Assembly: GCA_963716825.1 (NCBI GenBank)
Contig: CAVQUU010000029.1
Location: 56,767 to 88,766, forward strand
Length of the DNA: 32,000 bases
Direction of reading: 5' to 3'
From: an uncultured delta proteobacterium
Lineage (GTDB): Bacteria; Desulfobacterota; Desulfobacteria; Desulfobacterales; Desulfosarcinaceae
The notes beneath the pieces were generated by a model. It was not told the DNA's origin. It made no database searches and was given only the letters and a program-made list of their open reading frames with translations. A program made the position numbers and the translations under genes. Below, in pieces: positions 12,860 through 14,772 of this stretch (position 1 is its first letter; each line of letters starts with the position of its first letter).

Positions 12860-13156
12860 TTAACAGCATCCGCCTCCTTCACCCCCGCAACTCGCATTCT
12901 CCTTGCCGTGGATCCAACCGGAGATGATGTAGGCCGCACAACCCACCCCCGGGGTGACCCGGATGGCAGCCGTGGGACAGTTAAGGGCGCAGGCACCGCA
13001 TTCCATGCATCCATCCTTGTCCACCAGCCGCACCTTCTTTCCGTTCATGGCGAACACGCCGTGGGGGCAGACGATCTCACATGACCCGCAGCCCACACAG
13101 AGCGTCTCCTCGTATTCGAGGGTGGTCACGCCGGGCAGGTATCTGAACTTTTCCAT
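12860..13156 (-). CDS. hgcB: HgcB, 2x[4Fe-4S] ferredoxin of the mercury methylation pair
   Basis: 98 aa. Two CX2CX2CX3CP motifs (CVGCGSCEIVCP, CMECGACALNCP), an extra conserved Cys in GVGCAA, and a C-terminal vicinal CC (GGGCC-stop). SD AGGAGAG upstream. Lies downstream of hgcA. Confidence 0.9.
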   Translation of the reverse strand: MEKFRYLPGVTTLEYEETLCVGCGSCEIVCPHGVFAMNGKKVRLVDKDGCMECGACALNCPTAAIRVTPGVGCAAYIISGWIHGKENASCGGEGGGCC

Positions 13157-13204
13157 GGTTCTCTCCTAAGTGAATCCATGCTCCTTGTTGGCTACCAATC
13201 GTCG

Positions 13205-13347
13205 GTGCCCGTTCACAAATGGTAGATTTTGGTTCAGGCCAAGGCCGCAGCGATGTTGAACCCACAGGCGCAGCAGCGCTACGTCGAGGATTTCAACTTA
13301 GCGAGAACGCCGGCCTGGACCAAAAGATGCCGTTTGTGGACGGGCAC
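13205..13347 (-). repeat. Copy A of a ~145-nt nested-palindrome intergenic element (MITE/REP-like or structured RNA)
   Basis: - Terminal arms: GTGCCCGTTCACAAATGG (13205..13222) / CCGTTTGTGGACGGGCAC (13330..13347).
- Second stem: TTTTGGTTCAGGCC (13227..13240) / GGCCTGGACCAAAA (13312..13325).
- Third stem: GTTGAA (13255..13260) / TTCAAC (13292..13297), enclosing hairpin 13269..13283.
- Homologous to 18437..18583. Confidence 0.8.
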
Positions 13348-14555
13348 TATCCCATGAATCCGGCACTTACCCACACGATCACGGCAACCAGGGCACCGGC
13401 CGCCTGGGCCGGGATGGCCCGACGCATCTCCTTTTCCACGCCGGTGGGCGAGGTGAAGGGCGTCGATCCGGTAAAATTCATGGCCAGATACGAACTGAGG
13501 GCCATGATAAAAAGCGTCAGGGCCACCATTTCGGACCCGGCCAGCTGGCCGGCCAAGCTGGTCGACAGTACGGCAGCCGCTGCGGCCCCGATCCCGGCGC
13601 CTTTAAGGGCAAAGGCTCGGCCAGGCAGCCAGGACAGCAGCATCGGGGCCAGGATGGCGCCGGCCACCACGGCCATTAGATATGCCAGCATGGCCCATAG
13701 GCCCCTCGAAACGGCGGCGGTGACTGAAAAAAAGCCCTGGCCCAGCCCGGACATCAGGAACAGCGCCGGTATCAGATAGAGGGTCGGCTTGCCCATGTGA
13801 TTGAGTTCCACGGGAATCAATTCCACCCGCTCCCGAAGCGTGAAGGTAACTTGGCGCATGGCCGGGGTGGCCTGCATGCCGGCGTCCAGAAATGCCTTGA
13901 TGTGCCTGGCGTGCACCGGCCCCCAGACCACCTCGAAGCCGCACAGGCGCTTCACCTGGATAGCGGACACGCCGGTGGCTGAAAGCTGGGGCAGAATCAG
14001 GCGCCGATGGGTGACGATTTTTTCAAGGGCCACGGCGCTGACCCGTTCGGCCACCTCCCCGGTGGAGAAGGTTCCCTTGCCGGCCGCGCACCAGACGTTG
14101 ATGCTTCTGGTGTCCAGCACCAGAATCCAGGCATCGATGCCGGCGAGCGAACCACGCAGGCTGTCAAAGGTGAGCTTGTAGTTGGCCGTCACCATCACCG
14201 GCGACCCTGCGTCCGGCGAACCGACGCCGTAGAGGCCGGGAGCGATGCTGTAACTGTCCCGGCCAATGCCCAGGCGGGCAAGAACGGTTCCGATACGGTC
14301 TTCACGGTCCAATCGGCTGCGCACCCGCGGAATCTTCCCCGCCGGGGTCTGCACAAAATCCGCCACAAACCCCCAGAGGCGATAGCCGGGTTTTTCATAG
14401 GGGCTGCCGGGTTCGGGCGCCTGACCGCCACAGCACGGCTCTGCGTCCTGGCCAAATATCGGAAAATCCGGTTTCAGACCCGCGGAGGATGTATCGTGGC
14501 AGCTGCAAGGGGATGGGACGGCAGAGTCTTTTTCTTCCGGGCAGCATGCTGTCAT
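13347..14555 (-). CDS. hgcA: HgcA, corrinoid protein of the mercury methylation pair (CFeSP-like domain + C-terminal transmembrane domain)
   Basis: Cap-helix signature NVWCAAGK at residues 153-160 (nt 14076..14099). Corrinoid-binding-domain-like region (residues ~60-250), then 4-5 hydrophobic helices (LYLIPALFLMSGL, LWAMLAYLMAVVAGAILAPMLL, GAGIGAAAAAVL, MVALTLFIMALSSYL, AAGALVAVIVWVSAGF). Confidence 0.93.
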   Translation of the reverse strand: MTACCPEEKDSAVPSPCSCHDTSSAGLKPDFPIFGQDAEPCCGGQAPEPGSPYEKPGYRLWGFVADFVQTPAGKIPRVRSRLDREDRIGTVLARLGIGRDSYSIAPGLYGVGSPDAGSPVMVTANYKLTFDSLRGSLAGIDAWILVLDTRSINVWCAAGKGTFSTGEVAERVSAVALEKIVTHRRLILPQLSATGVSAIQVKRLCGFEVVWGPVHARHIKAFLDAGMQATPAMRQVTFTLRERVELIPVELNHMGKPTLYLIPALFLMSGLGQGFFSVTAAVSRGLWAMLAYLMAVVAGAILAPMLLSWLPGRAFALKGAGIGAAAAAVLSTSLAGQLAGSEMVALTLFIMALSSYLAMNFTGSTPFTSPTGVEKEMRRAIPAQAAGALVAVIVWVSAGFMG

Positions 14556-14559
14556 CGTT

Positions 14560-14772
14560 TCAGGTCTCTTTGCGCAGGATCAGGCGGCAAACCTTGCTCT
14601 CCGGTGCCGCAAGGAAGACGAAAGAAAGAATAAACAGCGGAACGGCAAAGAAAAGTCCCACCACCGGAAGGATCAGAAAACCCAGAAAACCCAACGCCAG
14701 GGCCAGGGGAAGTATGATCAACCCGATGGTTCGGCTCGACCACTTTTCGCTTACACAATCTTTTTTGTTCAT
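14560..14772 (-). CDS. Small (70 aa) two-TM hairpin membrane protein with one Cys on each flank, translationally coupled to hgcA
   Basis: ATG 14770..14772 is preceded by GGAGG at 7-nt spacing. Stop TGA at 14560..14562 lies 4 nt before the hgcA ATG. Sequence MNKKDCVSEKWSSR-[TM1]-P-[TM2]-PESKVCRLILRKET has positively charged termini. No family was recognised. Confidence 0.6.
   Translation of the reverse strand: MNKKDCVSEKWSSRTIGLIILPLALALGFLGFLILPVVGLFFAVPLFILSFVFLAAPESKVCRLILRKET

Follow-up and report, generated by a model that had tools for sequence, protein, structure and literature searches.

To our knowledge, hgcAB is the only known genetic marker for the microbial production of neurotoxic methylmercury. 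Methyl-cob(III)alamin on HgcA, with a cysteine of the cap helix as the lower ligand, methylates Hg(II) to methylmercury, and HgcB returns the cobalt of the cofactor to Co(I). The closest described systems are the HgcA/HgcB pairs of Pseudodesulfovibrio mercurii ND132 and Geobacter sulfurreducens (Parks et al., 2013; PDB 9a0b) and the arsR2-hgcA-hgcB operon found in ND132 and other Desulfobacterota (Goni-Urriza, 2020; Gionfriddo, 2022/2023). In ND132, hgcAB is regulated by ArsR2, the gene of which belongs to the same transcript; this protein responds to arsenic and S-adenosylhomocysteine (SAH), not to mercury (bioRxiv 10.1101/2022.10.17.512643). Here we describe an hgcA-hgcB locus in a stretch of 32,000 nt (the window) of contig CAVQUU010000029.1, from an uncultured member of the Desulfosarcinaceae. 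An original prediction for this DNA had placed the pair in a three-gene minus-strand unit and had regarded the arrangement as atypical in three ways: a coupled small membrane gene upstream, a structured spacer between hgcA and hgcB, and a Cys-rich N-terminus of HgcA. We consider it likely that the locus holds a bona fide HgcA-HgcB pair whose arsR, promoter and operator were lost by a deletion of ~0.6 kb, and that hgcAB was rewired as a result.

The hgcA-hgcB pair

The three predicted minus-strand open reading frames (ORFs), of 70, 402 and 98 aa, are all found in the ORF list of the window: a small gene (14560..14772), hgcA (13347..14555) and hgcB (12860..13156). The TGA stop codon of the small gene, the sequence AACG and the ATG of hgcA follow one another directly, leaving the two genes 4 nt apart, and hgcB lies on the same strand as hgcA, 190 nt downstream (spacer 13157-13346). 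Against the NCBIfam equivalog model NF040863, the 402-aa protein scores 437.8 bits (cutoff 275, E = 2e-131), with aa 75-400 covering positions 1-324 of the 325 in the profile. The model for fused HgcAB-like proteins (NF043039) gives 203.9 bits over aa 103-369, under its cutoff of 285, and the model for CFeSP (acetyl-CoA decarbonylase/synthase gamma subunit) gives 77.4 bits against a cutoff of 306, a comparison that favours HgcA. The 98-aa protein scores 123.4 bits with the HgcB model NF040864 (cutoff 99, E = 3e-36) over positions 1-93 of 93. Both curated equivalog cutoffs are passed over the full profiles, in agreement with the identity first proposed for the pair. Pfam recognizes only generic domains, CdhD on aa 104-222 of HgcA as well as Fer4_7 and Fer4 in HgcB.

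Translation of nt 14076..14099 (minus strand) gives exactly the motif NVWCAAGK on which the prediction had relied. It fits the cap-helix pattern of the family, N(V/I)WCA(A/G)GK, including the conserved Cys; N153-K160 are invariant across 49 aligned HgcA homologues, and Cys156 is the predicted cobalt ligand. An AlphaFold2 model of HgcA, built from an alignment of 49 homologues (mean predicted local distance difference test, pLDDT, of 73), has an alpha/beta corrinoid-binding domain at aa 64-246, in which a short helix (154-160) bears the motif. The predicted multi-helix membrane domain at the C-terminus is supported in two ways. Kyte-Doolittle hydropathy gives five hydrophobic segments in aa 258-402, and the model has five helices, 252-269, 278-309, 315-333, 340-362 and 370-401, placing the domain at aa 252-401 (13353..13802, minus strand). 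A Foldseek search of the PDB returned the HgcAB integrative model 9a0b_A as the top match (E = 2e-26, 55% identity), followed by CFeSP large subunits. The PDB sequence search found CFeSP chains only, and 9a0b surfaced in the fold search alone.

The features claimed for HgcB could likewise be read from its translation. The segments CVGCGSCEIVCP and CMECGACALNCP form two CX2CX2CX3CP motifs (C20/23/26/30 and C50/53/56/60), as expected for a ferredoxin with two [4Fe-4S] clusters; Cys73 sits in GVGCAA, a further Cys is at position 90, and the protein ends in GGGCC (C97-C98). The sequence is near-invariant across 11 relatives. A Shine-Dalgarno sequence, AGGAGA, is read 5 nt before the ATG of hgcB (13162..13167, minus strand).

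A database search with HgcA returned 7,700 homologues, the top ones being HgcA proteins, named as such or unnamed, of metagenome-assembled genomes (MAGs) of Desulfosarcina/Desulfobacteraceae, one of them 100% identical. A scan of the GTDB species representatives with HgcA gave 80 loci, and the best matches were Desulfosarcina sp. MAGs with 89% and 84% identity, followed by D. cetonica with 64%. Close relatives are already annotated as HgcA by NCBI; the pair adds to a well-known family and would receive the correct name from annotation pipelines. Since the corrinoid-binding domain is homologous to CFeSP, a non-methylating HgcA-like paralogue or a corrinoid protein of the acetyl-CoA pathway might be envisaged. 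The model scores given above argue against either, as do the cap-helix Cys, the five-helix membrane domain, the lack of an N-terminal [4Fe-4S] domain and the separate hgcB that adjoins, and we regard such an identity as extremely improbable. Each outcome that the original prediction had named as refuting was checked, and none was observed. As far as sequence can tell, the locus is a genuine and intact hgcA-hgcB pair, and its host is predicted to be a Hg(II)-methylating organism.

The region upstream of hgcA

The distance between the small gene and hgcA sets the window apart from several of the related loci used for comparison, which we designate by L-numbers (L001 and so on). The small-gene homologues of L001 and L002 are separated from the downstream hgcA by ~620 bp, as against 4 bp in the window, and the ORF in between encodes a 96-aa regulator of the ArsR/SmtB type. 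The regulator of the relatives scores 73.5 bits with the NCBIfam model HTH_metalloreg (cutoff 55). By blastn, positions 15672-14564 of the window correspond to 571-1678 of L001 and positions 14560-12861 to 2297-3993; the 618 bp in between (L001 1679-2296) align to nothing in the window. The comparison with L002 gives the same picture. L081, L082 and L083, the HgcA proteins of which are 91%, 89% and 87% identical to that of the window, have the small gene, an HTH_5/HTH_20 regulator, hgcA, hgcB and a convergent HD-domain gene in this order, and arsR is directly upstream of hgcA in D. cetonica. The regulator is present in L001, L002, L021 and L081-L083. Six relatives bear arsR, D. cetonica included, and in five of them it lies between the small gene and hgcA. 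Further afield, hgcA is closely preceded by a homologous arsR in 27 of the 80 genome loci; phmmer E-values reach down to 1e-60, with 4e-32 for the regulator upstream of hgcA in Desulfovibrio caledoniensis (L039). A homology search of the whole window found no ArsR homologue among its ORFs. Because the arsR-bearing state is common to the outgroup and to many distant lineages, the arsR-less state of the window is taken to be the derived one.

The missing segment appears to have carried more than the gene. Upstream of arsR, the relatives share a conserved block, TTGACA-17 nt-TATCGT, with 10/12 matches to the sigma-70 consensus, and this promoter-like sequence overlaps an inverted repeat, ATCGTA-N11-TACGAT. 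The motif was defined here from the relatives and not taken from the literature. Copies are at 1892-1931 in L001, 4608-4630 in L081, 3203-3225 in L082, 4607-4629 in L083 and 3615-3637 in L015; the last is a distant locus with an HgcA only 51% identical, and the same 23-mer stands upstream of its arsR. The inverted repeat is a candidate operator of the ArsR-type regulator. Neither the promoter block nor the inverted repeat has a match in the window, even with 2-3 mismatches allowed.

Junction alignment and blastn place the deletion at GAGACC TGA AACG (14556..14568, minus strand), where ~618 bp with the arsR-like gene and the promoter/operator are gone relative to close relatives. The ends of the deleted segment are alike, GAGAC[T/C]TA[G/A] on the left and GAG[C/G]TAAACG on the right, and these short similar sequences (GAGACYT and GAGSTAA) are consistent with a microhomology-mediated deletion of ~0.6 kb. 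The odd three-gene layout is best read as the product of this deletion, which joined hgcA to an unrelated gene for a small membrane protein.

Recurrence of the junction and selection on hgcAB

The junction, ...AAAGAGACC TGA AACG ATG..., is identical in seven other contigs from six samples, produced by several assemblers: L086 (ERZ27276608), L087 and L088 (both ERZ25039600, on separate contigs of 531 kb and 625 kb), L089 (Logan SRR18684948), L090 (ERZ25039514), L091 (ERZ27252234) and L092 (JGI 3300030616). Differences from the window at nearby positions show that they are not copies of one assembly; recurrence of an identical junction in seven contigs from six samples argues for a real deletion allele. 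A collapsed or chimeric contig would also yield a three-gene arrangement, and the window does contain at least one likely frameshift (a split icmF-like gene at 19949-23237), while the acyl-CoA dehydrogenase gene of the related contig L090 is split as well, as in indel-prone assemblies. Such an artefact would, however, have had to arise with the same junction in k141 short-read, JGI and Logan assemblies that differ at neighbouring positions, and we find it hardly credible. The stop codon of the small gene is TGA in all arsR-less loci and TAG or TAA in the five closest arsR-bearing relatives; in D. cetonica it is TGA.

The loss of the promoter could have silenced hgcAB and set the pair on the way to becoming pseudogenes. 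In favour of such an outcome, the window lacks the conserved promoter/operator and retains no more than a weak Shine-Dalgarno-like sequence before hgcA, and a nearby sigma-70-like promoter was not detected. Against it, seven of the eight arsR-less contigs have an intact hgcA (L086 ends ~130 nt into the gene). Of the seven arsR-less loci that extend to hgcB, six encode an intact HgcB (in L089 as far as the contig runs), with L091 unconfirmed. Between the three arsR-less lineages, the ratio of nonsynonymous to synonymous substitution (dN/dS) in hgcA is 0.13-0.21 at a dS of 0.24-0.27, as low as between arsR-bearing lineages (0.20-0.27), and the catalytic residues are all kept. A silent, decaying pair is quite improbable on this evidence, and hgcAB appears to have stayed under purifying selection without the regulator.

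Some of the compared contigs have irregularities. The split acyl-CoA dehydrogenase gene of L090 lies at 1693-2848, and in L091 hgcB is called in a shortened form of 78 aa (4762-4998) with a gap of 250 nt. These are probably assembly indels or differences in start codon, some of the assemblies being error-prone.

The small gene preceding hgcA

The 70-aa protein has one long hydrophobic stretch (residues 12-59) that hydropathy suggests to be two membrane helices, and its gene is preceded by a GGAGG Shine-Dalgarno sequence at 14779-14783. No Pfam or NCBIfam model matches the protein. It has 169 homologues; all those with a named source are from Desulfosarcina, and identities range from 67 to 99% among the 120 matches listed. 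In D. widdelii and D. ovata, the gene ends a cluster of thiolase, 3-hydroxyacyl-CoA dehydrogenase, HTH/cupin, acyl-CoA dehydrogenase and ACT genes, with no hgcAB nearby, and in D. cetonica an acetyl-CoA synthetase (acs) gene stands between it and arsR-hgcAB. We considered whether the small protein could be a component of the hgc system and rejected this as the main explanation, given the lack of adjacent hgcAB in the first two species and the intervening acs in the third. Synteny points to a conserved neighbour, the last gene of a fatty-acid (thiolase/acyl-CoA dehydrogenase) cluster and outside the ancestral hgc unit. The coupled small membrane gene of the original prediction does stand 4 nt upstream of hgcA, but it is not an hgc gene and probably owes its position to the arsR deletion.

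One locus cuts against the view of a bystander. In L009, from a Desulfobacterales MAG with an HgcA 55% identical to that of the window, a 45%-identical homologue of the small protein is encoded directly upstream of hgcA without arsR (3417-3794 and 3749-5119, respectively). A local DNA repeat lies between the two and occurs also at ~3076-3315 of the same locus. L009 is apparently a second, independent adjacency of the small gene and hgcA. In view of it, the small protein may be a functional partner, which we see as a minor addition to the explanation given above.

The repeat in the hgcA-hgcB spacer

The spacer between hgcA and hgcB is, as predicted, 190 nt long and structured: the computed fold of the whole spacer has -68.5 kcal/mol (z = -2.6) and contains a long hairpin that spans nt 2-140. 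What had been taken as an atypical feature of the operon is, though, a dispersed palindromic repeat that comes and goes among near relatives. The element of ~141 nt is an imperfect palindrome at 13205..13346 (minus strand), starting at the G of the TAG stop codon of hgcA. It matches its own reverse complement by blastn and has terminal inverted repeats, GTGCCCGTCCACAAACGG and CCATTTGTGAACGGGCAC. A second copy follows directly after the thiolase stop codon (18437..18581, minus strand; blastn 77% over 146 nt, nhmmer E = 1e-29). With nhmmer, further copies were found in L001 (three: within the spacer, immediately past hgcB and behind the acyl-CoA dehydrogenase gene), L082, L083 (one after hgcB and one after the thiolase gene), L081 and L015, bringing the totals to two in the window and at least eight in related loci. 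Positions include 411-550 and 3996-4136 in L001, 498-637 and 6504-6644 in L083, 281-421 in L081 and 1247-1387 in L015.

Six of nine full copies begin right after TA, so that the upstream gene ends in TAG or TGA, the first G of the element completing the TAG. No target-site duplication was seen in the flanks of nine copies. Compensatory changes between the nine copies affect 19 of 43 consensus pairs. Against Rfam at gathering thresholds, the whole window had no match, and the spacer thus corresponds to no known riboswitch or small RNA. The distance between hgcA and hgcB is 190 nt in the window, L001, L082, L090 and L092; 74 nt in L081, where a 54-nt remnant of the repeat is left, and in L087-L089, for which spacer length alone was compared; 29 nt in L002; and 9 nt in L083. 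Because the gap varies in this way among near relatives, the repeat would be a mobile or recombining passenger tolerated by the operon.

The N-terminal tail of HgcA

The third feature held to be atypical was the Cys-rich N-terminus of HgcA. Six Cys are indeed present in residues 1-42, as CC4-5, C17xC19 and CC41-42. They belong to a tail of aa 1-57 (14385..14555, minus strand) that falls outside the NF040863 profile and is predicted to be disordered, with pLDDT below 50 at aa 1-49 and 54-57 and no secondary structure in the AlphaFold2 model. The feature is not peculiar to the window. In 85 full-length relatives (59-100% identity), the Cys are conserved to 93% and 87% (CC4-5), 88% (C17), 84% (C19) and 100% (CC41-42). 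Among the HgcA proteins of the 80 genome loci, where N-termini were taken from the longest ORFs and some are over-extended, many have CC-, CCG- or CCPP-rich stretches before a conserved PGY motif, so that such tails are widespread in HgcA of Desulfobacterota; others have no Cys-rich tail, including ND132-like forms of ~338 aa. To judge from these alignments, the tail is a lineage-typical, conserved part of HgcA. A search of the literature on a Cys-rich HgcA N-terminus found no paper describing the tail. It is tempting to speculate that it serves as a thiol arm that catches or hands over Hg(II) or another soft metal.

Other features of the window

The hgc locus is flanked on one side by SurE, Nudix and HD-domain genes and on the other by genes for an ACT-domain protein, acyl-CoA dehydrogenase, an HTH/cupin protein, 3-hydroxyacyl-CoA dehydrogenase, thiolase and an IcmF-like mutase. 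This neighbourhood is syntenic with relatives and fits a Desulfosarcina chromosome. Between hgcB and the convergent HD-domain gene, an AT-rich hairpin read from the sequence, TGAATGAA-GGC-ATTCATTCA (12809..12828, minus strand), is a possible terminator; it was not flagged by the terminator scan, which demands at least three G-C pairs. The scan of 12600-15300 for sigma-70 promoters and terminators performed at or below chance, its sole 'terminator' falling inside the small ORF, and was not used for promoter placement. ARAGORN found no tRNA or tmRNA in the window, and no mer genes were found among its proteins by NCBIfam/Pfam annotation. A 662-aa FAD-dependent pyridine-nucleotide-disulfide oxidoreductase (29102-31090, minus strand) was considered and rejected as MerA: it scores 394 bits, below the MerA cutoff of 454, and passes the model of a generic FAD-oxidoreductase subfamily (740 against 620). 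It has an N-terminal DEP domain, an unusual fusion.

The IcmF-like fused mutase (B12-binding, MeaB and MM_CoA_mutase domains) at 19949-23237 (minus strand) is spread over two ORFs, 21555-23237 and 19949-21730, which overlap in different frames. D. widdelii and D. ovata have it as one gene of 1095 aa, and the split in the window is likely a frameshift, through a sequencing error or in a pseudogene. A cluster of ChrB, a major facilitator superfamily (MFS) transporter and ChrA (chromate transporter) at 25437-29064 (plus strand), with a divergent TetR-family gene at 24403-25215, suggests a chromate-resistance unit. The region ~4000-9000 is an island of low GC content (35-43%, against 55-62% elsewhere in the window) and may have been acquired horizontally; it encodes a 1154-aa protein with double zinc ribbon, adenylate/guanylate cyclase, AAA_16 and TPR domains (4848-8312, plus strand). 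A conserved ORF of ~500 aa at 10568-12163 (minus strand) matched neither Pfam nor NCBIfam models; relatives have it in a syntenic position beside the HD gene, with a called length of 501 aa (e.g., L083 7368-8873).

Discussion

In the reading that we prefer, the ancestral unit of the Desulfosarcina clade consisted of a promoter/operator, the gene for an ArsR-like regulator, hgcA and hgcB. The deletion took the regulator gene, its promoter and its putative operator, and hgcA now begins 4 nt past the end of the small gene. As a consequence, hgcAB would now be transcribed by read-through from the promoter of the small gene or from the upstream fatty-acid cluster, and its expression would no longer answer an ArsR-type sensor. 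Because only a weak Shine-Dalgarno-like GAGA remains before hgcA, its translation is perhaps coupled to termination on the small ORF. The ~141-nt repeat at the hgcA stop codon would put a long hairpin into the hgcA-hgcB transcript, and hgcB keeps a strong Shine-Dalgarno sequence of its own, AGGAGA. HgcA itself would function as a membrane-anchored corrinoid protein in which Cys156 ligates the cobalt of cobalamin and the methyl group on Co(III) is transferred to Hg(II). HgcB, as a ferredoxin with two [4Fe-4S] clusters, would re-reduce the cobalt to Co(I), and its Cys73 and C-terminal Cys-Cys probably handle Hg(II).

Several points weigh against this reading. Co-transcription with the small gene and translational coupling are both steps that we infer from sequence, and a promoter scan upstream of the small gene gave no convincing sigma-70 site. 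An ArsR homologue could be encoded elsewhere in the genome, outside the 32-kb window. Upstream arsR genes are present in only 14 of 31 confirmed methylators (PMC10349881), and since about half of these organisms do without one, loss of the regulator need not alter the phenotype much. In ND132, moreover, the level of hgcAB transcript predicted the methylation rate poorly. Lastly, the arsR-less loci do not group together in neighbour-joining trees of hgcA, hgcB and the small-gene flank, which fits more than one history of the deletion.

With respect to that history, the arsR-bearing loci L001 and L082 are sister to the group of the window in the neighbour-joining trees, with 93% bootstrap for hgcA, and the three lineages with the identical junction are not closest to one another. 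The idea that the deletion allele marks one clade is supported by none of the trees of hgcA, hgcB and the small-gene flank and was rejected. That the same junction is scattered in this manner suggests a deletion that arose once and then passed between co-occurring Desulfosarcina strains by homologous recombination. A conceivable alternative is that the deletion recurred at the microhomology.

A different question is what hgcAB is selected for. Heterologous HgcAB was found to dechlorinate CCl4 as well as to methylate mercury, and halomethane dehalogenation was proposed as the selected activity, in a 2026 preprint that is not peer reviewed (10.64898/2026.04.26.720869). The pair of the window could accordingly be functional in some other corrinoid chemistry, such as halomethane dehalogenation or an arsenic-linked reaction, with mercury methylation as a side reaction and loss of the regulator as an adaptation. 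The response of the ArsR-type regulator of ND132 to arsenic and SAH rather than mercury would agree with such a function, as would the strong purifying selection on hgcA in a window without mer genes. The window, however, says nothing on the substrate. We hold a side reaction of this kind to be unlikely; it concerns the selected function and not the identity of the genes, and is compatible with the regulator deletion proposed here.

Tentatively, and as a possibility that we rate well below the deletion itself, the data may reflect a regulator-less hgcAB allele that circulates in an environmental Desulfosarcina population, having arisen by one deletion, spread by homologous recombination, been kept by purifying selection and become hard-wired to a transcription unit of housekeeping type. 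If so, constitutive expression of HgcAB, insensitive to arsenic and SAH, would be advantageous in some habitats, where the potential for methylation would no longer be tied to the only known regulator of hgcAB. Closely related, otherwise syntenic strains with or without the ArsR-type regulator and its operator, under similar purifying selection, amount to a natural experiment. These natural alleles make it possible to test how important the regulator is for expression and methylation in the environment, what role the conserved Cys-rich tail of HgcA, which is left out of the family models, plays, and how a mobile hairpin element affects the stoichiometry of HgcA to HgcB. New here are the explanation of the layout by a natural deletion of the regulator, the occurrence of the allele in several samples, the hairpin repeat within the operon and the conserved tail, for which our literature search found no prior description.

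Comparison with known systems

Intergenic palindromic repeats in transcribed regions are known as ERIC/IRU, REP/BIME and Correia elements. Like these, the repeat in the window, at ~140 nt, has imperfect terminal inverted repeats and forms a long hairpin, is dispersed between co-oriented genes, and varies in presence among close strains. It differs from them in having no sequence relationship to any of the three and no match in Rfam.

Among corrinoid proteins, the large subunit of CFeSP, AcsC/CdhE (PDB 2h9a, 4c1n, 4djd), shares the homologous corrinoid-binding domain with HgcA of the window (sequence E ~1e-11; root-mean-square deviation 1.3-1.5 Å over 124 aligned columns). HgcA is distinguished from it by the cap-helix Cys and the membrane domain, and lacks the N-terminal [4Fe-4S] domain and the TIM barrel. 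The HgcAB-like fusions (NF043039) show partial homology, over aa 103-369 of HgcA, whereas HgcA and HgcB of the window are encoded by separate genes.

The pairs of P. mercurii ND132 and G. sulfurreducens (Parks et al., 2013; PDB 9a0b) are much closer. As in these, the two proteins of the window match the equivalog models over their full length. HgcA has the Cys of the NVWCAAGK cap helix, a corrinoid-binding domain and a five-helix membrane domain, and hgcB follows downstream, encoding two [4Fe-4S] motifs, Cys73 and a C-terminal CC. Unlike them, HgcA of the window has an N-terminal extension of 74 residues with six Cys, outside the family profile, and the locus has a 190-nt, repeat-bearing spacer between hgcA and hgcB and no upstream arsR. 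The arsR2-hgcA-hgcB operon of ND132 and other Desulfobacterota (Goni-Urriza, 2020; Gionfriddo, 2022/2023) has the same layout as the nearest relatives of the window. The window itself represents a derivative of that operon in which the regulator gene and its operator have been deleted and hgcA has been joined to a foreign upstream gene.

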